DNA of 64,000 bases from Candidatus Thorarchaeota archaeon (GTDB lineage Archaea > Asgardarchaeota > Thorarchaeia > Thorarchaeales > Thorarchaeaceae): positions 159,576 to 223,575 of the forward strand of contig RDOC01000001.1 in assembly GCA_011364985.1 (NCBI GenBank). The letters are read 5' to 3'. The notes beneath the pieces are model-generated. The model ran no database searches. It saw only the letters and a program-made list of their open reading frames with translations, and was not told the origin of the DNA. The position numbers and the translations under genes are program-made. Below are positions 3,251-20,909 of this stretch, in pieces (positions within the stretch are counted from its first letter, which is position 1; every line of letters begins with the position of its first letter).

Positions 3251-5668
3251 TCATCTATGGAAAGTCGCAATCACTGTGTTGGACATTGGCAAAGCGCGAA
3301 TGTATGCAATTCCAACCTCCTTCACTCGGTTTACAATGCCTCCTCCAAAGACTTTCATCATAGGCAAGGAGAAATACGTAGGCACATGAATTTCCAATTC
3401 ATTTGGCAGCTGAGTCATCCGGATCTCAATCTGGTGTTGATTTGTAGATGCTCCAACTTCAATGTCTACCTCACCCAGTGACAGTGGAATTCTATCTACG
3501 AGGAGGGGTGTGGGAGAAGTATACCATTCATCAGGAATGGCCGGGAGGACAACGATATCCGACTCCATTTCAGATACCACCATTTCGCGCAAGAGGATGA
3601 GAAGATCTGCTGCTGCAATCATGCTGCATCCATCGCCAGAGTGTCCTGCACCCGAATGTGGATCGACAAACTCAGGAAGAGTATGGTATTCCGAGAGCAG
3701 CTCTATTGCTCTGCGAAGAATATTCCATGTGCCAGATTTGCGAAGCGTGAAGACGTAGTAGTGGGCCAAACGCAGTGCAAGATGACTGGAAAATCGTTTC
3801 TCCTCTCCCGGGATCATTACTAGATTCCTTCGCATAAGGTTGTCCAAAGTGGTGTTTAGCGACCATTGTTCAAGACTGCTGTCGATAGTACCCTTTCCGA
3901 GAAGAGCAATTGCTGCAAGGAGGTCAAGTGATGCAAGCGATAGATCGGGGTCATCCGCTTGGTCTACGACACTTTGGTAGACCCTCACTGATTTGGATTC
4001 AAGCCATTTTGCATAGTCGTTCTGCAGACTACAGAGCGATTCTGCCAATTGGGTCATTTCAAGTGCCTCGAGAGACACCACACCGATTCTTAGAGCTGCT
4101 AAATCCCATAGTGAATCAACAATATCACGAAGTCCAAACTGCATTCTTATTGGAACAGGAGCCACATCCGTTGTGATGTCCTCACGCAATTCAGCCGTTA
4201 CCGCCAGTATTTCATCGACACCCAAGAACTCCTCTTTCGGCTCACTGTCTTCTCTGATTTTACCATGAATACTCCCAGACTTCACTGATTCATCAGCCAA
4301 ATCGCCAGACTCACTTTGCACTCTGATTCTGGCCTCAATTGTCAATTGCATCTTAGAATAATATGCGCCAATCAATGGGCTTATTGTCTTCAGAAACGTC
4401 ATATCTCGGAAATAGAAGAAATACTGAAGAATTCCCCAAATCAACGAACTCTGGCTATTAGGAGGTGTTTCCTTTTCATCCGAAAACCACTTCCGGATTG
4501 CTTTAAGGGCAAGTTCTTTCGCTAGCTCGGAACAGCCAGAGCGGCATAGTGCAGAAAAGACTCTAGCCCATTCGATAGACTCGGTTGAGCCTACTGAGCT
4601 AATGCCTGAGTTCAGCTTTGTGTCAACTTGTTGTGCAAGAACGGCCTTCGCCTGCAGAGCGGCATCATTCAGCACTACCTCTGGAAAAGTAAGATTCGTT
4701 GTCTTTTCGGCGAAATCGAACCACATGCCTACATATTCATCCCTTACGTTCGTATTCATTTTGAAGGGGATTTCGTCTGTCTTCGTCATTCTGGATAAGG
4801 GACTCACAAAGAAATACTTCTTGGATTCAGCCGGAGCTAAATTGACTCTGTACTTCAGAACAGCAGTAACGAGACCTTTGACGCTAGAGAACTCTGTGTC
4901 CTTTCGGTCATTCTCTTCTTGGATAGTGGCGATCAGATTCGGATTATCAGCAGTTGAAAGAACGATTGACGATGCCAGCTTGTCAAAGAGCATGGCAACG
5001 TAACCATTGGAAATCATCATCTTCTGAGCGGAATCATACTCGACGGACTCCAATGGTTCGACCCCTCTAACGGAAGTGGGTCTAAGAACTGCATAGAAAA
5101 CAAACTCAGTATCATTCAGCGAATGGTTCTTTAAGTGAATCTCATTGTATAGAGCTTCGCGTCCGCTCGATGTGCCATGATAAATCTGGCGAATCACTTC
5201 GATCGCCCCAAAGAATTTTCTCCATTCGAAAAGCTGATCATCAGGACTATACAGCTCGATTCTTGATTCGTTTCGGTCAACCAAGGCAGGGAAGACCATA
5301 GAGCCTTTATCCTCAAACCAGAAATCAATGGACCCACATTCACGATTAGCTGTCACAAGTCCTGTTTCATCCATTATTGCATAATTGCTGGATCCCACTC
5401 CGCCAATGGTGATCCAGTTCTGGCTCATGTTATTGGAAAGGGCATCCTCGGATATACTGCCAGATTTGGAAATTGATGCCTGCTTTGTAGCCCAAGCGGG
5501 GAGCATCCATGATTCCGAGGAGGTATAAACTACCTTGTTCAATCCAACCTGTAGATCACGTATTTCAAGTGCTGCGGAAGAATGTTGAAAGGATGACGAC
5601 GGCACTTTGTTATTTCGTGCTACTCGCCTGAATCGCTCAATAAGGTTATCATCTGTTAGGTCCAACAC
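3251..5668 (-). CDS. Six-hairpin (alpha/alpha)6 glycosidase-like protein, possibly inactive
   Basis: 805 aa ORF: beta-rich N-terminus (NWITIG...GLVT...SIDFW), helical core, LPEFVDPHSGAGHSGDG...AAADLLILLREMVV and a C-terminal LPAIPDEW beta domain typical of GH15/65/95-clan proteins. Confidence 0.55.
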   Translation of the reverse strand: MLDLTDDNLIERFRRVARNNKVPSSSFQHSSAALEIRDLQVGLNKVVYTSSESWMLPAWATKQASISKSGSISEDALSNNMSQNWITIGGVGSSNYAIMDETGLVTANRECGSIDFWFEDKGSMVFPALVDRNESRIELYSPDDQLFEWRKFFGAIEVIRQIYHGTSSGREALYNEIHLKNHSLNDTEFVFYAVLRPTSVRGVEPLESVEYDSAQKMMISNGYVAMLFDKLASSIVLSTADNPNLIATIQEENDRKDTEFSSVKGLVTAVLKYRVNLAPAESKKYFFVSPLSRMTKTDEIPFKMNTNVRDEYVGMWFDFAEKTTNLTFPEVVLNDAALQAKAVLAQQVDTKLNSGISSVGSTESIEWARVFSALCRSGCSELAKELALKAIRKWFSDEKETPPNSQSSLIWGILQYFFYFRDMTFLKTISPLIGAYYSKMQLTIEARIRVQSESGDLADESVKSGSIHGKIREDSEPKEEFLGVDEILAVTAELREDITTDVAPVPIRMQFGLRDIVDSLWDLAALRIGVVSLEALEMTQLAESLCSLQNDYAKWLESKSVRVYQSVVDQADDPDLSLASLDLLAAIALLGKGTIDSSLEQWSLNTTLDNLMRRNLVMIPGEEKRFSSHLALRLAHYYVFTLRKSGTWNILRRAIELLSEYHTLPEFVDPHSGAGHSGDGCSMIAAADLLILLREMVVSEMESDIVVLPAIPDEWYTSPTPLLVDRIPLSLGEVDIEVGASTNQHQIEIRMTQLPNELEIHVPTYFSLPMMKVFGGGIVNRVKEVGIAYIRALPMSNTVIATFHR

Positions 5669-5872
5669 GGTCCAACTCCAATTTGTGAGAGTGAGAAGCT
5701 GGCTGATGAGTCCTAAGTTGCGGAATAGGTAATTAATGTAGCTTGTTCATTTTTCGGACATGTCATGGATACCTAAGCCTTAATAACACTCTCAAGCCCG
5801 ATTGTACAAAAGCTCGATATGATTGCGTATTAAGCCCAAATGCTGATTGACCAAAGATATGAGGGATTTGCT

Positions 5873-7060
5873 ATGGCGGAAGTCCTCACGAAACCGTCTC
5901 GTAGAATTAGGAATATGGTTGCAAAGGAACTCAGATTAATAGCTAAAGACAAGGTTGCTCTGTTCTTGATCTTTCTGCTTCCAGCCGCGCTGATTGGAAT
6001 GCTCTGGTGGGTTACGGATATGAGCGACATGGGAGATATTCAGTTAGGCGATGATGACGGCGGCACAGACATTGGCACAAGCACAAACATAACCGAAGCT
6101 GAGGACACAGGTATCAGCATTGGGCTATTAGACTTCGACACAACACGCGTCTATGAAGGAGAGGACCTCTCTACAAACTTCACAAACTACTTGGAGATGT
6201 TCGTTGACGATTTAATAATGTACAACGACACGGCAGATGCTTTTCGAGACTTGTATGAGGGCGAAATCCTTGGATATGTAATAATCCCTGATGGATTCGA
6301 GGCCAACCTGACTGAGAACATACCAACATATGTTGAAATTCATGTAGATGCCACAGCACTATTGGATCAAGCTTCTGTTCAAGGTGTAATTCAGGGGGCT
6401 ATAATAAGCTTCAGGGCATCAAAACTGTGGATTAGATCTGAAGTGTTTCCTTCGATGATAATCGAATTCCAGCCAGAAGGAAGCTACCTTGCTGCAGTCT
6501 TTGGAGCATTCATTGTCATAATATCCTCATACCTAGGAATTGCTATGACTTCTGCCCAATCCATTGTAGGTGACATTCCTCTTCGTAGAATGTTACTCAC
6601 CCCGACAAACAGGCTAGAAGTGATTACTTCTAAGGCCATCGCCTATGTGATTATTGGTTTCTTCCAATCGCTTCTTCTCATTTCCCTCTGGATTATTGCT
6701 TTCGATTTGGAGATGAACACTGGTTTTGGGAGTCTGGTTATCATTATGAGCCTAACAGCTTTGACAGGATCATCTACAGGGATAATCATCTCTGCAGCTG
6801 CAGGAACAAGATTGCAGGCCAATCAGATCTTTCTCTTTGTCATGTTTGGCTCTGTTATAATGTCAGGATTCTTTATCGACGTGGGTTGGCTCAATGAAGT
6901 ACTCCCCCTGAATCTGGGAATGAGCGTCCTGATTGATACAGCATTCAAAGGATTATCATTACTTGATATCATAGATGCCATTCTTAGACTTCTTGCAATT
7001 TCATTAGGGATGATACTAGCTGCATCATTCATTTTCTCTAGAAAGCCAACTCTTGACTAG
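5873..7060 (+). CDS. ABC-2 type transporter permease
   Basis: AKELRLIAKDK...LLP TM1, large extracellular loop (VIIPDGF), LRRMLLTPTNRLEVITSK motif and five further TMs. Start placed at ATG 5873. Confidence 0.9.
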   Translation: MAEVLTKPSRRIRNMVAKELRLIAKDKVALFLIFLLPAALIGMLWWVTDMSDMGDIQLGDDDGGTDIGTSTNITEAEDTGISIGLLDFDTTRVYEGEDLSTNFTNYLEMFVDDLIMYNDTADAFRDLYEGEILGYVIIPDGFEANLTENIPTYVEIHVDATALLDQASVQGVIQGAIISFRASKLWIRSEVFPSMIIEFQPEGSYLAAVFGAFIVIISSYLGIAMTSAQSIVGDIPLRRMLLTPTNRLEVITSKAIAYVIIGFFQSLLLISLWIIAFDLEMNTGFGSLVIIMSLTALTGSSTGIIISAAAGTRLQANQIFLFVMFGSVIMSGFFIDVGWLNEVLPLNLGMSVLIDTAFKGLSLLDIIDAILRLLAISLGMILAASFIFSRKPTLD

Positions 7061-8771: not shown

Positions 8772-11700
8772 GTGGCTCTGACGAACTTGCTAAGACGAAC
8801 AGCGACTGGTTTCGCAGTTTTGGTTCTAGTGATGGTCGTTTCAGTTAGCCCTATGATTGCTACGATGTCTGTACTACCGGAGATGACTGAAGAATCACCG
8901 GTAGTCAGAATAGATGACGCCCTCTTAGATGATATGAACTCGAGCAATGAAACTGATATTCTTCTCACGTATAGTGATGCTGTTACCGAATACAAAGCGA
9001 AAACATCAATTGAGATGATAGACAGCTCAGCCAGAATCATTGAGACATTCACTGACCTGAATATGCTTCGGGTGAAGCTCATAGGAAGCTCGATTGGGAA
9101 ACTGGTCGAACTGAATTTCATCACGAATATATGGTCAAATGAGTTGTGTGAGGTGTCATCAGGCACCAATGCCTTGAGTCCAAGCGTTGCATCAAATCAG
9201 TACCAACCTGCTATCGACCTTATAGGTGGTCGGGGTCTCTGGGAGGAAGGATTCAATGGAACAGGTGTTGTCATTGCGGTTCTTGACACAGGTGTAGATA
9301 GCACCCATGCAGACCTTGACGACTTTGATGATAATGCCAGCACTTCTGACACGAAAGTTGCAGCTTCGGCATCCTTCTCCGAAGGCGATACACTGCCCAT
9401 CGATATAATAGGCCATGGGACTTACGCGGCATCAATTGCTGCAGGCACTGGGAATAGCTCGGAAGGCTTGTATGCCGGGATAGCTCCAGGAGCTACTATT
9501 CTTTCAGCCAAGGTAACACTGGGAGGCCTATACGCATCACCTAGCTGGATTGTATCAGGAATCGAATGGGCTGCAAGTAGAGGCGCAGACATCATCCTCC
9601 TGCCCTTCAACACCTTTGGTGCGCCAGGAGATGCTGTTTCTGTCGCAGTACGCGAAGCAGCAGAGAAGGGAATCTTCGTTGTTGCGGCGGCCGGTGACGA
9701 TGGACCAGATTACCTCACAATCATGTCACCAGGGGGTTCTGCTGCAACATTTACAGTTGGGGCGTATGATACCGAGAAGCAAGAGATTCCTGATTTCTCG
9801 GGAAGAGGACCATCTCTTGACCTCCTAACAAAACCGGACATTGTGGCACCAGGCGTAGGTGTTGTTGGAGCAAAGATGGGATCTGCGCTCGAAAGCCTTG
9901 GTTTCGGATCCTTTGACCTTGGCACCATTGGAAGCCTCTCGGGGCTTCTCGGTGGCGATAGCACCGGAGAAGACCTTGATGAGTACTACATGGTTGACGA
10001 TACAACAACTGCATCTGCATCAATCGTAGCAGGAGCTGCTGCAATTCTCATGCAGGCATTCGATAGGGTAACACCCATTGCCCTTGGCAATGTCCTAAGA
10101 GACACTGCAACTCTAATTCCCTACGGAGCAAATGATGGAGGTGCTGGACTTCTCAATCTGCAAGCAGCATTTAGCTATCTTCGAACCAAGCAAGAGCCCA
10201 TAAACCCCCAAAACAGAACAACGGGAACATCACAACTTGCTCTTGGTATCGTGACAACTGCAGGAACTGATTCCTCAACCATTCTACTAATGAGCAGCTA
10301 CGGTACTACTGTGGCAGCAGTTGATACACGAACTAGTCAAGACACCAGCATTCACATTCTCATGGGGATGTTTGCCCTCAGCTGGGAAAACAGAAGCCCC
10401 ACTAACCTCATGGAATTTGAAGTGAAAAGTGAACTTCACTACACTAGACTAGACTCAGGAGATCTTGGTTACAACAGAATGGTTGGAGTTCTTGCGTATG
10501 ATGAGATTTATGTGGTTCTGCTTGTGGAATCATATAATCTTACAACATATTCTTCTTTGCCACTTGACGGATTAAAGGTAACACCGTATATTCTTAATCT
10601 GGGTCCTAATCCTATTGATAATGTCAGTCTATTCCTGTCCTATTCTCTTGATCTCTTTAGTGACGGAGAGGATGACCATGGAAAATACTCGTTGGGCATG
10701 CAGGAGTTGTTTGTCTATGGCCAATCAGAAGACTTGGATAGCTTCTACTTCGGTCTGAATTCCAGCATCCCATTATCCGCCTTTGAGATTGGCAATTCTT
10801 CCGAGGTATCATCTCATATTTCAGATGACGGCTTGACCGGCTCAACCACATTCGACGGTTCGGTGGGTCTAGGGATGAAATGGCATTTTGGAGAACTCCC
10901 TGTGAAGAAACCAGCTAACGTTTCAATTGCTATGGGCTTCGGAGAGAATCGAACAGTCCTTGATGCGTCAATCCTAGCACAATGGGAAGCAGAGCCTCCA
11001 TCTACGGTTACTGATGAAGGAGACCTCATTATTGTCGAGGCAGACATTCCACGAGTTGCCGAGATAGGGGAGCATTATAAAACAAGGGCAGTCATGATCA
11101 ACGTGGGTGGAAATGCCTCACAAGCGACCGGCGCATTCTTGGTGGCAAAGGAAGAGGACAACGGACTATCGATGTTCAGCAGAGTGTTCTTGTTTGATGA
11201 AGTAAAACCATTCCATGCAGAGATACTAACAACAACTTGGAGCCCTGAGAAGATGGGCATAAACACTGCTGCATGGATTGCTGCACCAGATTTCGCTATT
11301 GTAACACAACTATTCTTGGGAACAGCGAATATCGTTGACCTGATCAATCTCTTGGACAACTTTCTCTTGCGAGATGTTTTTGTCATTGACCCAATCTCCT
11401 CAACATCAGTGTTCCCTAAACAGCTGCCATTTGCACCCTTTGATATCGTATTTCCCGCTGATTTTGGTTTATACACATTCGTAGTCGCCACAACAGAAAG
11501 CCTTGGAAACCTCACTGTACAGAAGTATGGCAATGCAAGCGATTGGGGTAATGCCACACTACCAAGTACAGAAACAGTGGAGGGTTATTACAACTTCTCA
11601 CTCTTTCTTCTAGCATCCCCGATAACCATTGATGGATACCATCGATGTGACTATGTAATCGATACGGACACAGGCTGGACCTACAATATTACGTTGGAAA

Positions 11701-13142
11701 CAAGCCTTAGATATCCTAGAGCAATGATGCTGGTTGACACCTCTCACGGGGGAGGATTGAGTTTCTTTGGAGGCTTTGGGGATGTGGGAGGTATGGGAGA
11801 TATTGGCGGAAGCATGGAATTCCCGCTTGCACAGGATGATAGCGGAGGCATTTCACTTGATTCAGGATTCGACCTCAGCAGCCTTGGAGACCTAGGTGAT
11901 CTTACCGGTCTATTGGATGCATTTCGTCTCACAACATTCTCAGGACTATCAAGCATGAAGAAAGCGATGGCCAACAGAGGTCTTGATTTGGTTGAAACGC
12001 CAGGAATTGAGCTTGATGAAGACCTTCTAAGCCAGTTCTCGGCAGTCTTTGTCTTCAGTCCAACGGAAGAATTCAACAGCACAGACGTTGACATGCTCAG
12101 GAAATATACAAGAGATGGTGGCAAGCTAATAGTCCTTGGAGATGAGGATGGTACAGCCAATCTAACTGGCATTAACAATTTGATTTCGCCTTTTGGATAC
12201 TCGATGCAAGGCGCTCATCGGCAAGAGAACACCACAGACATCATAAGTGGAACGCTGCTTGGGAGTAGTCTAGACTCAATCTGGCTTGGTGGTGGAACCT
12301 ACATTCTGGGTAATCAGTCGTTATCCACCGCTTTCGTCAATGGAAAACCTGTTGTCCTCCTTGACGATTCAAGACCAGAGTTGGCCCTCTTTGGGTCTTC
12401 AAGAATATTCATGAACAAGAATCTTGCAAAATGCAACAATTCTCTTCTATTAGATAATCTAATCACATACCTATTGAGAAACACGCTGACGGGAGAGGCA
12501 TCACTGGCTGAAGACACCCACTTATACGAGGCGGGAAAGAGCGTCTATCTGAATCTTGTGATAACAGACATACATGGGCGTCCTGTGAACGATTTGTTCG
12601 TGGCAATAGCCTTTGAGCTGCCCAATGATACGCTTGTCTTTTTTATTGCCGGATTTGTGGAGAACGGACTCTACTCGTCCCAGTTCACTCCGAGCTACTG
12701 GAAATCAGCAGGAAGAATCAACGGTATCTTTGTGATAATGGGTGGGGAGAACTATGCCAATACCTATGCCGGCATAGGATTCGAGCTTTATGAACCAAGT
12801 GCCACTACAGGAGTCGAGCCGCCGTTCAGACTCTTGACAATGGCCCAGATAGCCATGTTAGCTGCCGGCGGCATCTTTGGCTCTCTAATACTGGGGCTCG
12901 TCTACAATAGAAGAGCCAAGCGCAAGAAGATGCGCATCATTGAGATTGAGCCCGAATTAGTGAGAGAGATTGACAATACGCTAAATGCATTGCTTGCTGC
13001 TTTCACGCAGATAGAACAGCTCATCCAACGAGAAGACCTAGACCGAGTACAGAAAATAGAATCGTTGAGAGGACTTATGGAAGGGCTCGAAAAGGGACAA
13101 AAGGAGTTCAAGAAGGTGAGCGATAGAGTGGGAGGTGTGTGA
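8772..13142 (+). CDS. Membrane-anchored S8 subtilase-like protein with GIFT/DUF4350-like domain (Site-1 protease-like architecture; probable pseudoprotease)
   Basis: Signal peptide, prodomain, VAVLDTG (Asp), GHGT (His), KPDIVAPG. The Ser motif reads DTTTASASIVAGAAA. Then LVDTSHG...FSPTEEF...GGKLIVLGD...NNLISPFG...LFGSSRIF, a TM and a coiled-coil tail. Confidence 0.85.
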   Translation: MALTNLLRRTATGFAVLVLVMVVSVSPMIATMSVLPEMTEESPVVRIDDALLDDMNSSNETDILLTYSDAVTEYKAKTSIEMIDSSARIIETFTDLNMLRVKLIGSSIGKLVELNFITNIWSNELCEVSSGTNALSPSVASNQYQPAIDLIGGRGLWEEGFNGTGVVIAVLDTGVDSTHADLDDFDDNASTSDTKVAASASFSEGDTLPIDIIGHGTYAASIAAGTGNSSEGLYAGIAPGATILSAKVTLGGLYASPSWIVSGIEWAASRGADIILLPFNTFGAPGDAVSVAVREAAEKGIFVVAAAGDDGPDYLTIMSPGGSAATFTVGAYDTEKQEIPDFSGRGPSLDLLTKPDIVAPGVGVVGAKMGSALESLGFGSFDLGTIGSLSGLLGGDSTGEDLDEYYMVDDTTTASASIVAGAAAILMQAFDRVTPIALGNVLRDTATLIPYGANDGGAGLLNLQAAFSYLRTKQEPINPQNRTTGTSQLALGIVTTAGTDSSTILLMSSYGTTVAAVDTRTSQDTSIHILMGMFALSWENRSPTNLMEFEVKSELHYTRLDSGDLGYNRMVGVLAYDEIYVVLLVESYNLTTYSSLPLDGLKVTPYILNLGPNPIDNVSLFLSYSLDLFSDGEDDHGKYSLGMQELFVYGQSEDLDSFYFGLNSSIPLSAFEIGNSSEVSSHISDDGLTGSTTFDGSVGLGMKWHFGELPVKKPANVSIAMGFGENRTVLDASILAQWEAEPPSTVTDEGDLIIVEADIPRVAEIGEHYKTRAVMINVGGNASQATGAFLVAKEEDNGLSMFSRVFLFDEVKPFHAEILTTTWSPEKMGINTAAWIAAPDFAIVTQLFLGTANIVDLINLLDNFLLRDVFVIDPISSTSVFPKQLPFAPFDIVFPADFGLYTFVVATTESLGNLTVQKYGNASDWGNATLPSTETVEGYYNFSLFLLASPITIDGYHRCDYVIDTDTGWTYNITLETSLRYPRAMMLVDTSHGGGLSFFGGFGDVGGMGDIGGSMEFPLAQDDSGGISLDSGFDLSSLGDLGDLTGLLDAFRLTTFSGLSSMKKAMANRGLDLVETPGIELDEDLLSQFSAVFVFSPTEEFNSTDVDMLRKYTRDGGKLIVLGDEDGTANLTGINNLISPFGYSMQGAHRQENTTDIISGTLLGSSLDSIWLGGGTYILGNQSLSTAFVNGKPVVLLDDSRPELALFGSSRIFMNKNLAKCNNSLLLDNLITYLLRNTLTGEASLAEDTHLYEAGKSVYLNLVITDIHGRPVNDLFVAIAFELPNDTLVFFIAGFVENGLYSSQFTPSYWKSAGRINGIFVIMGGENYANTYAGIGFELYEPSATTGVEPPFRLLTMAQIAMLAAGGIFGSLILGLVYNRRAKRKKMRIIEIEPELVREIDNTLNALLAAFTQIEQLIQREDLDRVQKIESLRGLMEGLEKGQKEFKKVSDRVGGV

Positions 13143-13143
13143 G

Positions 13144-14133
13144 ATGTCTGATGCTGAGAAGACTCAAGCACTCGAGATTGACATCAAGGACCTCAAGGTT
13201 GCCTTTGGTGATTTTTACGCACTTAATGGGGTTTCGTTTTTCGCTTACAAGAAGGAGTTCCTCGGAATCATTGGGGCCTCTGGAGCAGGGAAGACCACTG
13301 TTCTCCGTGTTCTTACAGGACAGGTCGGACCAACCTCTGGTCAAGCCTTTGTTGGCGGCTTTGATGTGACTAAGAAGAGCGACCTAATCAGCCTTCTAGT
13401 TGGCTACGTTCCTCAACTAGAGCATCTCAGTCTGTACTATGACTTTACCGCCCTTCAAAATGCCGAGTTCTTTGGTAGGTGTTTTGGCCTGAGGCCTAAG
13501 GAGATAGAGAAGCGTGCTCGAAACATCCTGACAATTCTTGGTTTCGATGAAGAACTCATGACAAAGGCGGTAAAGAGACTCTCAGGTGGAGAGAGGAAGC
13601 GTGTTTCCATTTGTCTTGGCATGATTCATGATCCCCCAGTGCTGTTGCTCGACGAACCTACAACCGGCCTCGATGCACACCTCAGACACGAGACTCTGAA
13701 CTACCTGAAAGAACTGAACTACGAACTGGGAACAACGATGGTCATCATCTCCCATGACCTTGAGATTGTTGACTATTGTACACGAGTATGCCTGCTGGAA
13801 GACGGGCTCATTAGCCAATTTGGCACTCCAGAGGAGTTGATCTCCACGCTGCCCGGAAAAGGCGAGAGTTTGAGGATTGTTCTTCCAAAGATAACGACTG
13901 GAATCATGAACCAAGTGATGTCACTTCCTGGCGTCGAATATGTGGCTGCAGCCGGTAGAAACGCAGTCAAGCTTTTCATTGATGATCCGGATAAGCAGAT
14001 TCTTCCAATTATCAAAATGCTCAACCAGAGAGGTATACCCTTTGAGGAGATATCCCTAGTAGAGAGCGATTTCTTCGATTACTTCCAAGTGAAGCCTTGG
14101 AAAGACAATGGTGGAGGAGAGAGTACTCCGTGA
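13144..14133 (+). CDS. ABC-2 type ATP-binding protein
   Basis: GASGAGKTT, LSGGE, LLLDEPT, ISH and a C-terminal DUF4162/ACT-like extension. ATG 13144 follows the stop of the preceding gene. Confidence 0.92.
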   Translation: MSDAEKTQALEIDIKDLKVAFGDFYALNGVSFFAYKKEFLGIIGASGAGKTTVLRVLTGQVGPTSGQAFVGGFDVTKKSDLISLLVGYVPQLEHLSLYYDFTALQNAEFFGRCFGLRPKEIEKRARNILTILGFDEELMTKAVKRLSGGERKRVSICLGMIHDPPVLLLDEPTTGLDAHLRHETLNYLKELNYELGTTMVIISHDLEIVDYCTRVCLLEDGLISQFGTPEELISTLPGKGESLRIVLPKITTGIMNQVMSLPGVEYVAAAGRNAVKLFIDDPDKQILPIIKMLNQRGIPFEEISLVESDFFDYFQVKPWKDNGGGESTP

Positions 14134-17100
14134 AACGAAACAGAATACTCCTAGTATTATTGTGTGCTTGTGTGCTAATCGGACTCCAAGCATTAATTGG
14201 AGATCCCACAGGGCAATCTGTTGCCATCATACAGGACAGGTCCAGTGCAGTAGTCGCGGAGATTGCTCCGTTCGACACCGCGATTGTGTGGTCCAATGAC
14301 ACAGGAGGACAGGTGGCTGGTATTGCCATTGCTAATTTTGATGGCGATAACTACGATGAGATGGCGGTGGTCACTCAGGCCGGGGTGTTACAGCTCTATG
14401 ATCACACTGGGAATCGTCTCTGGAGCAGAGACCTGATGACTCCAGCCAATGACATCGCGACCTTGGATAGGAACGCCGACGGAGAAATGGAGATCGTGGT
14501 GGGAACTGACGATGGCTTCATGGTGATGACAGCATCCCAGACCGTTCTTGCCAATATTGCCCTTCCAAATCCAGTACAGGCCGTTGATTCCGGTGACCTT
14601 GATCTGGACACCTTTGACGAGGTCTTCATTGGATGCGATGACAACCATCTCTACGCCTATGAGGCAAATGGCACCTATATCTGGGAGTTTGCAAGCAATG
14701 GGCCCATCACTCAGGTTCTGGCCGCTGATGTTGACCTCGACAGTGGAGCAGAGGTGCTTGTCGGGTCCTCAGCTGGAAAATTCGCTCTGGTCGAAACCAC
14801 TGGAGCCGTCACATTCAGTGTAGACAAGGCTTATGCTATCACTGGAGTGGCTGCAGGAAACCTGCTGAGCGGGGGAAATCTAGAGGTAGCCTTTGGTACC
14901 GCTGGGGGCGAAATTGCAGTCTATCGAAGTGCCGGCACTCCAGAATATGGCATCTACCATGATGATGCAGTGACCGCCTTGCACATTGGACAGCTTGTTT
15001 CTGGAGGCTTTGATGAGATGGCCTTTGGCACTGCAGGAAACGAACTGCACGTCTACAATGGCACCGGCTCTATGCAATGGAATAAGACGTTGGCAGGCCA
15101 AGTAAACAGCATCCGCTTTGCCAATGTGGGCGGTCTCCCGAACAATCAGCTCATCTCTGGTACTGGGGCTGGGACCCTCAACGTCTACAATGCCACAGGT
15201 TACAGGGTGGTTCAGACTACCCTTGATACTTTCCAAGGAGTCATTGCCATCGGTGATATCGACACCAATGGCAACAGCGAGTATGCCGCAGGAACCAACA
15301 ACGGCATCATTAACGTCTACGGAAGGGATCTTGATGGCGACGACCTTGCAGATGCGCGAGAAACCCTCATCGACCTCACTAACCCCGCAGAGCCTGACTC
15401 GGACTATGACAATTTAGATGATGGTGAAGAGGTTCTTCAGTATGGTACAGATCCAAATAGCGACGACTCAGACTCAGATAAGCTGAAGGACTTCTCAGAA
15501 GTTCACACCTATGGAACCGATCCCAACGATGCTGATTCTGACGATGACCTTCTCACAGACTGGCAAGAGATCTACCTCGGTACCGATCCCAATGACGAAG
15601 ACTCGGACGGAGATGACTTGACAGACTTTGAAGAGAACAACGTGACTCTCACGGACCCACTTGATTCTGACACGAACAACAATGATATCAATGACGGGGC
15701 TGACGATAATGATGGCGATGGCCTGACAAATCTGCAAGAAGTGCGTCTTACGCTTACCGATCCCAATGATGTGAACACAGATGGAGATGCGCTCAGCGAT
15801 TATTATGATGATGAGGACGCAGATAGCCTCGCCAACTGGAAGGAGATTCAGGTCGGTGCGGACCCGCTTGATCCTGACTCAGATGATGACTTGCTTTTGG
15901 ACGGTGCAGAGGTCAAGATATGGAAGTCCAGCCCCACGAATCCAGACACTGACGGAGACGATTTGACCGACTATGAAGAAGTCATGATTGTTGGCTCGAA
16001 CCCCACCAAAGCTGATACTGACGAAGACACGCTGTCTGACTACGAAGAATACGTGACCTACGGAACCAACGTCACCAATGCCGACTCGGACTATGACGAC
16101 TTGGAAGATGCAGACGAGATCAATGAGTACTTCACAGACCCTCTCGATTGGGACTCGGACGGAGATACTCTGTCGGATGGCGACGAAGTAAATGTATATG
16201 GTACTGACCCCAACTCGGTGGACACGGATCTAGACACGCTTTCGGATGATTATGAGATTACACAGGGAACGAACCCCAAGAAGGCAGACACCGACGGAGA
16301 CACGATAAATGACGCGCTTGAATTGCTTACCTATTTCACCAATGCCACAAATGTCGACACCGATGGCGACCTGATTCGGGACAACGATGAGATCAAGTAT
16401 CTGGCATTTGGTTTCGACCCCACGGATTCGACTTCTTGGGGGCAGCCAGAGAGCGATTATGATTATGATGCTGACGGTGACTTGCTTACTAATGGTCAGG
16501 AGATATACCTCACCCGAACGCATCCAGGCCGAATTGACTCAGACCTAGATGGTACCAACGACAATCTTGAGGATGCTGACTTGGATGACATCAACAACTA
16601 CGATGAGATCAACGTGACTGATACAGACCCTCGAAATCCTGATACCGATGGGGATGAAGTGAAGGATGGTGATGAGTATCTCATTTTAGGAACTGACCCC
16701 AACGATGAGGACACGAATGATAATTCAATCAACGATTATGATGAGGACCCCGATGAGGACAACCTCTCCAATGGTGTCGAGCTCTATATCACCGATACTG
16801 ACCCCTTGGACGCAACAACTCACGGGACAACGCCAGACGACGAATATGATGGTGACGGAGATTTCTTGCCAAACTGGTTTGAAGTCTTTAGAACTGGGAC
16901 TGACCCGCTGTACAATGATACCAATGACAATGGCATCTTTGACTGGGAGGAGGACCCAGACAATGATGATTTGACCAATCTGCAGGAGTATGAGGTATGG
17001 AGAGATTTTGGGTACGAGTGTGATCCCCTCGATGCAGACTCTGACAATGACCAACTAACGGATGGTGAAGAGGTCCTCTACACGCTCACCGATCCCAGCG

Positions 17101-20100
17101 ACAATGATGACGACGATGACACGATTCTCGATGGTCAAGACGACCAGGACAACGATGGCCTAACAAACATAGAGGAACTGCGGATCTATAACACGAATGC
17201 CACCAATTGGGATACCGACGGAGACATGATCCGCGACGGGCTTGAGATTCAGATAGGGCTGAATGCGACAAACTTTGACACGGATGGGGATGGGATCTAT
17301 GATGGATGGTTCGATGAGGATGGGGACGGAATCTATGACCCTGAAGAGCTAGGAGAAGATGTGGATGCAGATGGCATTGTTGACCCTGAAGAAACCGACC
17401 CGAACAACGCAGATTCCGACGGGGATGAGTTAGATGATTATGAGGAATACTTAGTGGGCACGAATCCGTTGAAACCAGATTCGGACGAAGATTTGCTGCT
17501 TGATGGTCAGGAGGTTCTTCACTTCGGGACGAATCCGCTTTCAAACGACACTGATGGAGATCTCCTTGATGACTATATTGAGGTGAATGTTACCCTTACC
17601 GACCCAACTAATATGTGGTTCAATGGCACTCACACGGATTACCAAATTGACTCGGATAATGACATGCTGTCAAATGGTGACGAAATCTACATCTATGACA
17701 CTAGCCCCGGCGACTTCGACTCCGATGACGACCTCATTGGAGATGGCGAAGAGATACTTGTCTATGGCTCAGACCCGCTAAAATGGGACTCCGATGGAGA
17801 CCTGCTATCGGACTACGATGAGATTATGAGATACGGGACGAACCCCGCGGCCCAGGACTCTGACGCAGATCAGGTCGATGACTATTCGGAGATTGTGATT
17901 CTTGGCACTGATCCGAACCTATGGAGCACAGCAGGCAACGGCACTTCAGACTATGACCGAGATGAGGATGGAGATGGTCTAAGCAACGGTCTCGAACTCT
18001 ATGGTTACCACAGCAATGCCACGTCTTCTGACACTGATGGAGATGAATTGGAAGATGGCATAGAGGTCTATCTCGCAGGGAGCAGCCCGACCGACAAAGA
18101 CACTGACGATGACGGTGTTAGTGACTACTTAGAATACATGGTCTACCACACAGACGCTTCGGGCTCGGATTCAGACTCAGACGATTTGACGGACTACTAT
18201 GAAATCTACGTGTCCCTTACGAGTCCTACTGACTGGGACTCAGACGATGACCAGCTCTCTGACGGTGACGAGGTGAATGAATATGGGACAGACCCCAAGG
18301 CAGCGGACTCGGACAACGACCAGCTCAATGACAGAAGGGAGCTGTTTGAGGTTGGTACCGACCCCTTGCTCAACGATACTGACGGAGACACCCTCAGTGA
18401 CTACGAAGAATGGGTTATTTACGGTACAGACCCGCTAGTGGCCGATGCAGACGAAGATGGACTTAACGACGCAGAAGAAATAGAGAACGGAACTGACCCA
18501 GAGAATGAAGACTCCGACTTTGATTCCCTTAGCGATTATGATGAGGTCAATATCTACGAAACCAGTCCTATTAACGCAGACACAGACTTTGATAACCTTG
18601 CAGATAGTGATGAAATATTCAATAGCAAGACCGATCCCAATCGCGCGGACACCGATGGGGACTCAATCCCGGATGACCTTGATGATAAGGACGCCGATGG
18701 AATAAGCAACTTCGATGAGATCTACGTGTATGAAACCAACTGCACTCTCTTTGACACCGACGGGGATATGCTAGGGGATGGCTATGAAATCGCACAAAAT
18801 CCATGGGTAACCGACCCGAATGAGGTTGATACCGATGATGATTTGCTTAGCGACTGGGATGAAATCTTCATGTGGTCTAGCAATCCAACACGCAAGGATA
18901 CCGACGGGGATCTCCTCCAAGATGGTGAGGAAGTTCTGACCTGGCACACCGACCCTAACCTCGATGATACAGACGCCGATATGGTCAACGATTATGATGA
19001 AATCAAGGTCTTCGAAACAAACGCGTTGGACCCCGATTCTGATGATGACAATTTGTCCGATGGTTATGAGTTGTTCGTCTACAACACGGACCCCCTCAAT
19101 GAAGACACAGACAATGACAGACTACTGGACGACGAAGAGGAATTCTATGGTACTGACCCAAGAGTGGAAGATACAGATGAAGACGAACTAACAGACTATG
19201 AAGAAGTGTACTTGACGGGTACAGATCCGACCCTATACAGTACGGAGGGCGACGGAATTTCAGACGCCGACCGTGACGGCGATAACGACATGCTCACAAA
19301 TTCTCAGGAGATTCGTCTGACTAAAACAAACCCTGCTAGCAATGATACCGATGCCGATGGCAAAATCGATGGATTAGATGACGAGGATAGAGACCTCTTG
19401 ACCAACTACGAGGAATGCGTCATTACTGAAACTGACCCCAGAGACAGAGACTCCGACGACGACGGTGTTAGCGACCTGAACGACGATCAGGACGGGGATG
19501 GACTCACGAATGGTGATGAGGTGCACATTTATCTGACAGACCCGCTACGTCGCGATACTGACGGAGACAAACTGTCTGACAGAGAAGAGGTTGAAGACTA
19601 CGGCACAGATCCGCTCGTCAAGGACACGGACATGGACGAAATCGAGGACTACGAGGAGATAAACACCTATCACACCAATGCGACCTACTTTGATACAGAC
19701 TACGACCTGCTCAGCGATTGGATCGAAATCTTCCTAACTGAAACTGACCCGACGAATATGTGGTACAATGCGACTCATACGGACTATGAGATTGACTCAG
19801 ATGGTGACTTCTTATCCAATGGTGCAGAGATCTACAATTACGCCACATCACCGGGAGACCCTGATTCGGACAACGACAACTTGCTTGATGGCGAAGAAAT
19901 CGCACTGGGAACGGACCCCCTTGAAGAAGACTCAGACTTGGATAATCTCATTGACGGCTTGGAAGTGCACGTATACCAAACTGACCCCCTCTCCGAGGAC
20001 ACCGACGAAGACCAAATCAATGACTACGATGAAGTGCGCATCTACTTCACGAACCCAAACGTTGAAGACACGGATCAAGACAACCTATCAGATTACGATG

Positions 20101-20909
20101 AAATCTTCGTCTACTTTACGGACCCGAACTCCGGAGACTCCGATAGGGATCAGGTCCCTGACTATACCGAAGTTGTAACCTATGCCGAGTATAACATGAA
20201 TCCCTGGCAGGCAGATTCTGACAGCGACGGGCTGAGCGACAGCCTTGAACTCTACACAATAGGCACGAACCCCGGTCTGAATGACACAGACGCGGATGGA
20301 CTTGACGACTATGCAGAATACTACACCTACAAAACCTCCCCGTTGGCTCCTGATACAGACCAAGATGGCTGGACGGACTATGAAGAAGTCACCATCTACG
20401 GGACCGACCCGCTAAAGGTCGACACGGATGCAGACGGTCTCATGGACTCAATGGATTTCAATCCGCGGCTCCACTGGGTCGTGCCAATCATCGTTCTACT
20501 ATTCGTTGGCGGCATCACCGCAGTAGTCTATAAACGCGTACGTAGAACTACACGCAGAGAGGAGTACATCACAAAGGCAGAGCCTGCAAGCCTCGGTCTT
20601 GAGAAGGGGATGGACATCGCGGTGGAGTACAAGATACGCGAAGGCAAGGTGGTCTTTGGCGTGGCGATACGGAATAACTCTGCGAACCCCATGAGCAATG
20701 TGCAGGTGGTGCTTGGTATACCCGAACTGACAGATACCATCCAGAGCAAGAGCGCAGGTTCTGTTGAGCCCGGCGATAGTGCAGTGGTAGAGATCGCCTT
20801 CGAATTGCAGCCCGGCGCCGAGGGCGAGCTAGTAGGCATGGTGGAATATGACTCCGTCGAGGGTGAGCACCGTATAGTGAACCTAAAGCCCGTCAGGATT
20901 GTAGCATAG
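14130..20909 (+). CDS. Giant single-pass surface protein: FG-GAP-like beta-propeller, TSP3-like Ca-binding repeats, TM, cytoplasmic Ig-like domain
   Basis: GTG 14130 overlaps the upstream TGA (GTGA) and is followed by signal peptide MKRNRILLVLLCAC. DxDxDGxxE(V/I)xVG blades, then D(S/T)DxDxLxDxxE...TDP repeats, TM WVVPIIVLLFVGGITAVVY plus KRVRR, and a C-terminal beta sandwich. Confidence 0.9.
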   Translation: MKRNRILLVLLCACVLIGLQALIGDPTGQSVAIIQDRSSAVVAEIAPFDTAIVWSNDTGGQVAGIAIANFDGDNYDEMAVVTQAGVLQLYDHTGNRLWSRDLMTPANDIATLDRNADGEMEIVVGTDDGFMVMTASQTVLANIALPNPVQAVDSGDLDLDTFDEVFIGCDDNHLYAYEANGTYIWEFASNGPITQVLAADVDLDSGAEVLVGSSAGKFALVETTGAVTFSVDKAYAITGVAAGNLLSGGNLEVAFGTAGGEIAVYRSAGTPEYGIYHDDAVTALHIGQLVSGGFDEMAFGTAGNELHVYNGTGSMQWNKTLAGQVNSIRFANVGGLPNNQLISGTGAGTLNVYNATGYRVVQTTLDTFQGVIAIGDIDTNGNSEYAAGTNNGIINVYGRDLDGDDLADARETLIDLTNPAEPDSDYDNLDDGEEVLQYGTDPNSDDSDSDKLKDFSEVHTYGTDPNDADSDDDLLTDWQEIYLGTDPNDEDSDGDDLTDFEENNVTLTDPLDSDTNNNDINDGADDNDGDGLTNLQEVRLTLTDPNDVNTDGDALSDYYDDEDADSLANWKEIQVGADPLDPDSDDDLLLDGAEVKIWKSSPTNPDTDGDDLTDYEEVMIVGSNPTKADTDEDTLSDYEEYVTYGTNVTNADSDYDDLEDADEINEYFTDPLDWDSDGDTLSDGDEVNVYGTDPNSVDTDLDTLSDDYEITQGTNPKKADTDGDTINDALELLTYFTNATNVDTDGDLIRDNDEIKYLAFGFDPTDSTSWGQPESDYDYDADGDLLTNGQEIYLTRTHPGRIDSDLDGTNDNLEDADLDDINNYDEINVTDTDPRNPDTDGDEVKDGDEYLILGTDPNDEDTNDNSINDYDEDPDEDNLSNGVELYITDTDPLDATTHGTTPDDEYDGDGDFLPNWFEVFRTGTDPLYNDTNDNGIFDWEEDPDNDDLTNLQEYEVWRDFGYECDPLDADSDNDQLTDGEEVLYTLTDPSDNDDDDDTILDGQDDQDNDGLTNIEELRIYNTNATNWDTDGDMIRDGLEIQIGLNATNFDTDGDGIYDGWFDEDGDGIYDPEELGEDVDADGIVDPEETDPNNADSDGDELDDYEEYLVGTNPLKPDSDEDLLLDGQEVLHFGTNPLSNDTDGDLLDDYIEVNVTLTDPTNMWFNGTHTDYQIDSDNDMLSNGDEIYIYDTSPGDFDSDDDLIGDGEEILVYGSDPLKWDSDGDLLSDYDEIMRYGTNPAAQDSDADQVDDYSEIVILGTDPNLWSTAGNGTSDYDRDEDGDGLSNGLELYGYHSNATSSDTDGDELEDGIEVYLAGSSPTDKDTDDDGVSDYLEYMVYHTDASGSDSDSDDLTDYYEIYVSLTSPTDWDSDDDQLSDGDEVNEYGTDPKAADSDNDQLNDRRELFEVGTDPLLNDTDGDTLSDYEEWVIYGTDPLVADADEDGLNDAEEIENGTDPENEDSDFDSLSDYDEVNIYETSPINADTDFDNLADSDEIFNSKTDPNRADTDGDSIPDDLDDKDADGISNFDEIYVYETNCTLFDTDGDMLGDGYEIAQNPWVTDPNEVDTDDDLLSDWDEIFMWSSNPTRKDTDGDLLQDGEEVLTWHTDPNLDDTDADMVNDYDEIKVFETNALDPDSDDDNLSDGYELFVYNTDPLNEDTDNDRLLDDEEEFYGTDPRVEDTDEDELTDYEEVYLTGTDPTLYSTEGDGISDADRDGDNDMLTNSQEIRLTKTNPASNDTDADGKIDGLDDEDRDLLTNYEECVITETDPRDRDSDDDGVSDLNDDQDGDGLTNGDEVHIYLTDPLRRDTDGDKLSDREEVEDYGTDPLVKDTDMDEIEDYEEINTYHTNATYFDTDYDLLSDWIEIFLTETDPTNMWYNATHTDYEIDSDGDFLSNGAEIYNYATSPGDPDSDNDNLLDGEEIALGTDPLEEDSDLDNLIDGLEVHVYQTDPLSEDTDEDQINDYDEVRIYFTNPNVEDTDQDNLSDYDEIFVYFTDPNSGDSDRDQVPDYTEVVTYAEYNMNPWQADSDSDGLSDSLELYTIGTNPGLNDTDADGLDDYAEYYTYKTSPLAPDTDQDGWTDYEEVTIYGTDPLKVDTDADGLMDSMDFNPRLHWVVPIIVLLFVGGITAVVYKRVRRTTRREEYITKAEPASLGLEKGMDIAVEYKIREGKVVFGVAIRNNSANPMSNVQVVLGIPELTDTIQSKSAGSVEPGDSAVVEIAFELQPGAEGELVGMVEYDSVEGEHRIVNLKPVRIVA
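15327..20465 (+). repeat. Coding tandem repeat array (~22-23 aa bacterial TSP3-like units)
   Basis: Recurring D(S/T)DxDxLxDxxExxxxxTDPxxx over ~1700 aa, roughly 70-80 units estimated from length/period. Units diverge at the nucleotide level. Confidence 0.9.

Follow-up and report, generated by a model that had tools for sequence, protein, structure and literature searches.

Introduction

Subtilisin-fold proteins that have lost catalytic residues and are retained as sensors or regulators have been described in Clostridioides difficile (CspC and CspA, in the relevant parts of 10.1101/461657, PMC7200643 and PMC12880746). Here we analyze a protein of Candidatus Thorarchaeota archaeon in which a subtilase (S8) domain with a noncanonical active site is joined to a GIFT domain (S8-GIFT); its gene lies in a stretch of 64,000 nucleotides, hereafter the window (assembly GCA_011364985.1, contig RDOC01000001.1, positions 159,576 to 223,575 of the forward strand). 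The Csp pseudoproteases are alike in that they, too, have the subtilisin fold without the catalytic residues and have been kept as proteins that function without cutting; they differ in being soluble Firmicutes spore proteins that lack a GIFT domain, a membrane anchor and an ATP-binding cassette (ABC) operon. The window protein scores 32 bits against a cutoff of 675 with the NCBIfam model for CspC (NF040808, CspC_non_triad) and 100.4 bits against 278.75 with the type VII secretion system mycosin model (TIGR03921), and so belongs to neither family. The catalytic losses in the Csp proteins and in these Asgard proteins are independent of each other.

Among solved S8 proteins, the closest in sequence, Tk-SP of Thermococcus kodakarensis (PDB 3afg and 9ues, E 3.1e-39 and 1.3e-39), is also the closest by fold, propeptide included. 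We take Tk-SP to be an active protease and its deposited chains to be engineered inactive forms; the deposited chain reads GTA for GTS, and 9ues is titled an inactive mutant. Unlike the window protein, Tk-SP has the oxyanion Asn, and it has neither a GIFT domain nor a membrane anchor.

For the other half of the protein, the nearest described system is the ABC-2 transporter of gliding Bacteroidota, formed by GldG with GldA and GldF. In both cases a GIFT membrane protein is encoded beside an ABC-2 permease and an ATPase. The window protein differs in that its GIFT domain is membrane-proximal in a 1456-aa protein led by a dead protease, and in that its operon, in an Asgard host, has two ATPases and a giant protein with TSP3 repeats. 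The S8-GIFT gene is the third of these five co-directional genes, whose neighbors overlap or almost abut. The GIFT domain was named after GldG and IFT52 and, in the section of PMC7226087 that treats it, is proposed to bind sugar. In our literature search, in which supplements were outside the scope, we found no description of a dead S8-GIFT family.

Placement of the Active-Site Residues

An initial annotation of this gene, made from the sequence alone, had read the catalytic Asp and His as intact (Asp172 and His215), the canonical AAGN motif as AAGD (Asp309), and Thr413 as the residue at the nucleophile position, with the motif Gly and Pro lost, all within an open reading frame intact over 1456 aa. 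These assignments stand: the frame is open, and the codons and three separate alignments agree with them. When the protein is aligned by phmmer with Tk-SP (3afg/9ues), AAAGDDGPD lies opposite AAGNSGPN, and DDTTTASASIVAG opposite APGTAMATPHVAG, which places Asp309 at the oxyanion Asn position and Thr413 at the position of the nucleophile. BLASTP against the canonical S8 paralog from the same genome agrees, with the paralog's Asp, His and Asn opposite Asp172, His215 and Asp309, and the four key columns of a MAFFT alignment of 97 S8 domains read D/H/N/S in 60 of the 60 canonical rows.

The VAG motif leads to the same assignment, since Thr413 lies eight residues before its invariant Gly; the Gly of the nucleophile motif has become Thr411 and its Pro Ser417. 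Ser415 follows closely, its TCT codon starting at 10014. In the AlphaFold2 (AF2) model, residues 412-429 form a helix (predicted local distance difference test, pLDDT, 92 for the block) with Thr413 at its N-terminal end, which is where we understand subtilisin to carry its nucleophile Ser. Measured against what an active S8 enzyme carries, then, the window protein has the catalytic Asp and His and lacks both the nucleophile Ser (G-T-S-x-A-x-P) and the oxyanion Asn. This noncanonical pattern is not due to chance, as it recurs in every ortholog examined.

Variation of the Active Site Among Orthologs

A search with residues 130-500 gave, among the matches listed, 119 relatives at 65-89% identity, most of them labelled Thorarchaeota and “S8 family serine peptidase,” which together with the window protein make up 120 aligned rows. 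Asp309, Asp410 and Thr412 are each found in 120/120 rows; the exchange of the oxyanion Asn for Asp, for which the initial annotation had proposed an alignment of orthologs, is thus fixed. The surrounding positions are less uniform: 411 is Thr in 100 rows and Ser in 20, 415 is Ser in 103 and Ala in 17, and the His215 column holds His in 112, Ser in five and Pro in three, with Asp present at the Asp172 column in 117 of the 120. Position 413 varies most freely, being Thr in 63 rows, Ala in 47 and Ser in 10.

The same picture emerged at the level of species. The 80 genome loci yielded 55 full-length genes, or 56 species-level genes with that of the window; the other 25 loci end at contig ends or have no frame of at least 1250 codons (the latter is true of L069, of L071, L072, L074 and L075, labelled Hermodarchaeota, and of L079, labelled Woesearchaeota) and are outside these counts. 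Asp309 is present in 56/56 genes, and position 413 is Ala in 31, Thr in 20, Ser in four and Val in one. The codons used there (GCN in 31, ACN in 20, TCN in four, GTT in one) include three sets, GCN, ACN and TCN, that are single-base neighbors of one another. Column 413 has an entropy of 1.38 bits and is flanked on both sides by columns of zero entropy. On a FastTree phylogeny of 111 orthologs of at least 1300 aa, built from residue 501 to the end and therefore independent of the trait, position 413 changes state at least 22 times and His215 only twice; even the nearest relative, which is 86% identical, has Ser at 413. This drift among Thr, Ala and Ser, with so many changes on the tree, is the reason for concluding that position 413, as far as sequences can tell, tolerates any small residue and is not kept as a nucleophile.

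The loop that follows Asp309 (residues 310-322, DGPDYLTIMSPGG) behaves in the opposite manner, in that D310, G311, P312, D313, Y314, S319, P320, G321 and G322 are all invariant. Yet nowhere in the S8 domain is the model less confident (pLDDT 33 at model residues 281-290), and the loop is a candidate for an element that binds a partner or ligand and becomes ordered only in complex. The junction between propeptide and catalytic domain (residues 126-146) has the highest column entropy that we measured, 2.56 bits, as against an S8 median of 0.57, and the ortholog alignment contains no conserved processing site there.

Selection on the Gene

The ratio of nonsynonymous to synonymous substitutions (dN/dS), estimated by the Nei-Gojobori method for 18 gene pairs with dS of 0.1-1.3, is between 0.05 and 0.14 over the whole gene. 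The median is lowest in the S8 domain (0.062) and rises through the GIFT region (0.070), the middle of the protein (0.077) and the transmembrane helix and tail (0.085) to the propeptide (0.110). Mean pairwise identity, calculated for the four regions other than the transmembrane helix and tail, likewise peaks in the S8 domain, at 0.717. Comparison of the genes thus indicates that the dead S8 domain is under strong purifying selection and is not decaying.

The window genome (1.70 Mb in 22 contigs, 74% complete) contains one other S8 gene that we could find, the canonical paralog mentioned above. It lies on another contig (L082, 1090-2829) and encodes a protein of 579 aa with a signal peptide and intact DTG, HGT, AAGN and GGTS motifs; with these motifs intact, the organism evidently retains the canonical residues in a protein that requires them.

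A Single Loss Within the Asgard S8-GIFT Lineage

To the 150 representatives listed by a search with the S8 domain, we applied two exclusions: 54 rows were dropped because the matched span fell outside 220-700 residues or because a key position was unaligned. The 96 kept, with the window protein, form the 97 rows already mentioned, 60 of them canonical and 37 not. In an IQ-TREE phylogeny computed without the eight active-site columns, 35 of the 37 non-canonical rows fall into one set with full support (SH-aLRT 100), and three changes in total are needed; the remaining two are a protein that has DHD and keeps GTS, and a misaligned row. By the phmmer alignment (MAFFT shifts one row), the 35 carry G in 12, A in 10, T in seven, S in four, F in one and D in one at the nucleophile position; H in 15, R in 12, S in five, E in two and I in one at the His position; and D in 31 and N in four at the oxyanion position. 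As for position 410, the representatives outside the Thorarchaeota have N, S or T there, except for the closest of them, P0122, which has D.

A GIFT-type domain was detected near the C-terminus of 25 of the 32 non-canonical representatives scanned, and members of the dead clade include Promethearchaeota, Ranarchaeia, Lokiarchaeota and Helarchaeota. One step further out, the tree has a set of 49 tips (support 82) that takes in 14 canonical rows as well, seven of which also have a GIFT-type domain. These seven intact-triad S8-GIFT proteins (P0189, P0208, P0220, P0233, P0258, P0263 and P0266) are 1220-1290 aa long; in each, the GIFT-type domain follows immediately on the S8 domain, and in five there is a zinc ribbon at the C-terminus. 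Promethearchaeota and Odinarchaeota are among the members. They are the nearest canonical neighbors of the dead clade. Because the 35 non-canonical rows form one clade beside these intact Asgard proteins, we conclude that the catalytic set was lost once, long ago, within the Asgard S8-GIFT lineage.

Domain Architecture and Structural Relatives

The protein was modelled by AF2 in two overlapping parts, residues 32-530 (mean pLDDT 73.5) and residues 480-1335 (mean pLDDT 81.5). Foldseek places the first among the subtilisins (TM-scores of 0.85-0.88, normalized to target length), so that it is a member of the S8 fold family despite its active site, and its top matches are uncleaved pro-forms: ProN-Tk-SP (3afg, E 2.6e-25) and pro-subtilisin E (3whi). 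The propeptide itself is confidently modelled (residues 11-90 of the model, pLDDT 84-92), and the family profile aligns with the ProN part of 3afg and with the propeptide of 3whi. At the N-terminus, Kyte-Doolittle windows of 19 residues exceed 1.6 from residues 6-19 onward, behind an RR motif. All 25 of the 25 N-x-S/T sequons lie within residues 56-1285, the predicted ectodomain, and the cytoplasmic tail ends in three invariant residues (G1454, G1455 and V1456) and has conserved I1400, D1401, A1409, Q1413, K1428, E1430 and R1433.

The GIFT domain is recognized by Pfam (PF23355, IFT52_GIFT, 37.9 bits; cutoff 27.2), by sequence match to IFT52 in the PDB (E 6.5e-5) and by VIA-align against IFT52 (5fmr_A: Z 23.1, root-mean-square deviation [rmsd] 2.3, 196 residues aligned), and its membership is therefore clear. 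Residues 488-743 resemble the N-domains of glucoamylase/glucodextranase (GH15), cellobiose phosphorylase (GH94) and GH116 enzymes, with Z of 17-22 overall (1ug9: Z 22.2, 231 aligned, rmsd 2.9; 1lf6_A: Z 21.0).

The architecture as a whole resembles that of eukaryotic site-1 protease (MBTPS1/S1P), which we assume to be an active protease and which appears to have the same order of propeptide, S8, beta-sandwich, GATase/GIFT-like domain, transmembrane helix and short tail. The S1P ectodomain (9csd_A, E 3.6e-11) is the top Foldseek match of the second model; VIA-align superposes residues 878-1238 on S1P 482-874 (Z 18.9, 304 aligned, rmsd 5.7, 14% identity), and an S1P cluster is the third feature match in the ESM Atlas (0.85), which we treat as a lead only. 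The two differ in that residues 488-743 lie outside the S1P alignment and in that the Asp-His-Ser triad is incomplete in the window protein. At the level of sequence, the Pfam model MBTPS1_4th matches three of 32 dead and two of 24 intact relatives, no MBTPS1 Pfam match is found in the window protein at E up to 0.1, and S1P is absent from the best 60 PDB sequence matches of the S8 domain, of the family profile and of the intact relative P0233.

OST48/Wbp1, a subunit of the eukaryotic oligosaccharyltransferase, shares the anchor module of GIFT domain, beta-sandwich and C-terminal transmembrane helix (protein residues 984-1335 on OST48 45-406: Z 18.6, 279 aligned); it differs in the orientation of the domains, as the rmsd of 13.5 shows, and in having no S8 head. 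In the part of PMC10307638 that deals with WBP1, Asgard homologues are reported only in Heimdallarchaeia. The models thus suggest a common domain order and anchor-module fold with S1P and OST48, a resemblance rather than an established descent.

Interpretation

We are highly confident that the S8 domain is non-catalytic and maintained by selection, and we think it likely that it is the inactive distal subtilase head of a large glycosylated type-I surface protein, one that may serve as a GldG-like accessory of the neighboring ABC-2 transporter. The initial annotation had preferred to see in it a pseudoprotease retained for peptide binding or as a scaffold; the fixed Asp309 and a purifying selection that is strongest in the S8 domain bear this out.

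Its second suggestion, an enzyme with an atypical nucleophile, is not supported. An active hydrolase might use Thr413, or else Thr/Ser411, Thr412 or Ser415, together with His215 and Asp172, and there is something to be said for this: Asp172 and His215 are kept in most rows (117 and 112 of the 120), 411 is always Thr or Ser, Thr412 is invariant, and Thr413 is at the start of the helix, in the expected place of the Ser. Yet position 413 is Ala in 47 of the 120 rows and in 31 of the 56 genes, with no fewer than 22 changes of state on the tree, and 17 rows have Ala in place of Ser415. Thr412 corresponds, in the alignment with Tk-SP, to the Thr of the canonical GTS, which active subtilases conserve although it does not act as their nucleophile. 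Moreover, the oxyanion Asn is Asp in every copy, a clade of eight has Ser or Pro for His215 with the rest kept, and in the wider clade the His position is R/S/E/I in 20 of 35 rows and the nucleophile position G/A/F/D in 24 of 35. An unusual nucleophile is, in our estimation, very unlikely. The same can nearly be said of a rebuilt metal or water-activating center in which Asp172, His215, Asp309 and Asp410 act on a non-peptide substrate such as a glycan. These four acidic and imidazole residues are indeed invariant or nearly so in the Thorarchaeota, and the flanking domains are like the N-domains of carbohydrate enzymes and like GIFT, for which sugar binding is proposed (PMC7226087, in its treatment of the domain), but outside the Thorarchaeota the His position becomes Arg, Ser, Glu or Ile and 410 is mostly N, S or T, so that there is no catalytic set common to the clade; we regard this possibility as quite unlikely. 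That the substitutions reflect recent decay, a pseudogene or an error of sequencing has a probability of practically nil: nothing was found in its favor, all 1456 codons are open, the same substitutions are present in 119 relatives and in 55 other species' genomes, and dN/dS is low over the whole gene. Independent data for this exact DNA consist of two metagenome runs from which it may derive; reads of two DNA and two RNA runs gave no placements on positions 9200-10100, a result that speaks neither for nor against expression. Nor do the orthologs all carry GTS, which the initial annotation had coupled with decay as an outcome that would tell against its own reading; the relatives have Thr, Ala or Ser at 413.

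Several observations weigh against the non-catalytic, transporter-associated protein that we favor. Ser is found at 413 in 10 of the 120 rows and four of the 56 genes, so that some members could have residual activity; most copies in the Thorarchaeota retain Asp172 and His215, for which a protein of purely structural function would have no obvious need; and the model is weak exactly in the invariant loop after Asp309 (pLDDT 33). The profiles built for GldG score below their cutoffs on the window protein (PF09822, ABC_transp_aux, 19.5 bits against 34.7; TIGR03521, 12.5 against 389.85). A physical association with the transporter is suggested by synteny, close spacing and the analogy to GldG, and we lean only somewhat toward the protein being a subunit of it.

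A protein of this non-catalytic kind could work as follows. Without a nucleophile, the propeptide would not be auto-cleaved and would stay attached, and an uncleaved propeptide would fit the highly variable junction. The remodelled cleft (PFN in place of SLG, the loop of residues 310-322, and Asp172, His215, Asp309 and Asp410) may then bind a partner or ligand. The S8-GIFT protein would be the GldG-like accessory subunit of the flanking permease and its two ATPases, and ATP-driven movement would be coupled through the transmembrane helix and tail to the cell surface. The target might be the giant calcium-binding protein encoded downstream, or a glycan; the latter is conceivable because the sandwich and GIFT domains resemble carbohydrate-related modules, GIFT being a proposed sugar binder according to the passage on it in PMC7226087. 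A much more speculative proposal, to which we give little credence for now, is that the dead and intact Asgard S8-GIFT proteins and S1P (together with OST48 for the anchor module) come from one Asgard architecture, and that the Thorarchaeota head is the ligand or partner gate of an undescribed ABC-driven surface machine that handles the giant calcium-binding protein.

The comparison indicates that proteins now labelled “S8 family serine peptidase” in this lineage cannot work as serine peptidases. Peptidase counts used to argue for protein-degrading lifestyles in Thorarchaeota would accordingly be inflated by one conserved gene per genome. The family also offers a clean natural example of a pseudoenzyme, in which the dead domain is more constrained than the rest of the protein. 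A five-gene cluster present in nearly every genome of its family points to an uncharacterized Asgard cell-surface system, and the likeness in domain order and anchor module to S1P, OST48 and IFT52 makes the prokaryotic roots of these proteins a testable question.

Gene Cluster, Distribution and Feature Map

The coordinates of the gene, its parts and its neighbors are collected in Table 1. The S8-GIFT gene begins 7 nt after the end of ATPase 1, and the start of ATPase 2 overlaps its stop by 8 nt.

Table 1. Positions within the window of the S8-GIFT gene, the parts of its product and the other genes of the cluster
Feature	Position	Strand	Remarks
ABC-2 permease, 406 aa, first gene of the cluster	5840..7060	+	Pfam ABC2_membrane_3, E 1.5e-24
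ABC ATPase 1, 567 aa, N-terminal extension of ~250 aa	7061..8764	+	Pfam ABC_tran at residues 269-411
S8-GIFT gene, pseudo-subtilase/GIFT membrane protein	8772..13142	+	1456 aa, GTG start; frame open over 1456 codons
N-terminal hydrophobic segment, ~residues 10-35	8799..8876	+	predicted signal peptide or signal anchor
Subtilisin-type propeptide (I9-like), residues 42-122	8895..9137	+	AF2 pLDDT 84-92; profile and Foldseek
Propeptide/catalytic-domain junction, residues 127-140	9150..9191	+	variable; pLDDT <50
S8 (subtilase) domain, residues 163-453, catalytically degenerate	9258..10130	+	Pfam PF00082 Peptidase_S8, E 7.1e-42
Asp172, catalytic Asp position, retained	9285..9287	+	codon GAC
His215, catalytic His position, retained in window copy	9414..9416	+	codon CAT
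Asp309 at oxyanion-hole Asn position	9696..9698	+	codon GAC
Loop, residues 310-322	9699..9737	+	near-invariant sequence; low model confidence
Gly/Ser/Leu-rich insertion ahead of nucleophile helix, residues 375-397	9894..9962	+	unaligned gap against Tk-SP; pLDDT <50
Thr413 at nucleophile Ser position	10008..10010	+	codon ACT
Super-beta-sandwich, residues 488-743	10233..11000	+	like N-terminal domains of GH15, GH94 and GH116 enzymes (VIA-align)
Beta-sandwich domains, residues 752-989	11025..11738	+	AF2 secondary structure; pLDDT mostly 80-90
Gly/Asp-rich disordered linker, residues 995-1046	11754..11909	+	pLDDT <50 at model residues 516-567
GIFT (IFT52/OST48/GldG-type) domain, residues 1047-1239	11910..12488	+	Pfam IFT52_GIFT, PDB sequence match, VIA-align
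Membrane-proximal beta-sandwich, residues 1240-1334	12489..12773	+	AF2 model
C-terminal transmembrane helix, residues 1354-1378	12831..12905	+	hydropathy windows; followed by NRRAKRKK
Conserved cytoplasmic helical tail, 78 residues (1379-1456), ending VGGV	12906..13139	+	conservation
ABC ATPase 2, 332 aa	13135..14133	+	Pfam ABC_tran
Giant surface protein, 2270 aa, beta-propeller and TSP3-type calcium-binding repeats	14097..20909	+	Pfam TSP3_bac, E 1e-24

The gene order of the window recurs across the 80 loci, where S8-GIFT is accompanied by ATPase 1 in 79 and by the permease in 71. ATPase 2 is found downstream of S8-GIFT in 51 of the 80, at 63-84% identity (a raw tally of 79/80 includes cross-matches to ATPase 1, at ~32-37% identity, where the contig ends first), and the N-terminal part of the giant protein is syntenic in 51 of the 80 as well. 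The misses coincide with contig ends, the exception being the Woesearchaeota locus, which has an S8 match only.

Of the 76 genomes sampled from the family to which the window's organism belongs, 72 contain the non-S8 part of the protein (residues 501-1333). Elsewhere in the phylum its distribution is patchy: it occurs in family f2 (1/1 genomes), f7 (5/5), f12 (17/19), f19 (6/6), f9 (3/68), f24 (1/7) and f30 (1/1), and the same query has no match in the other 22 families. In total, 107 of 301 genomes match residues 501-1333 at E ≤1e-10. Two loci of one assembly (L010 and L011, on contigs C9 and C11 of genome G233) look like whole-locus copies, with the same coordinates, identities and scores for every gene compared; this is probably an assembly duplication rather than two gene copies.

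Some further features of the neighboring genes may be mentioned. The N-terminal extension of ATPase 1, which is highly conserved among orthologs, scores 26.9 bits (cutoff 22.2) with the model for the TrmB regulator's C-terminal domain. The giant protein contains dozens of TSP3-type repeats and ends in a hydrophobic segment followed by a domain of ~130 aa; its N-terminal propeller has weak matches to BBS2_Mid (28.5 bits, cutoff 27) and Beta-prop_BBS7 (26.3 bits, cutoff 27), BBSome models whose matches may reflect only a generic propeller. Upstream of the cluster, on the opposite strand, is a divergent 805-aa open reading frame (3251-5668) with no Pfam match, which is present in the same position in 52 of the 80 loci at 28-47% identity.

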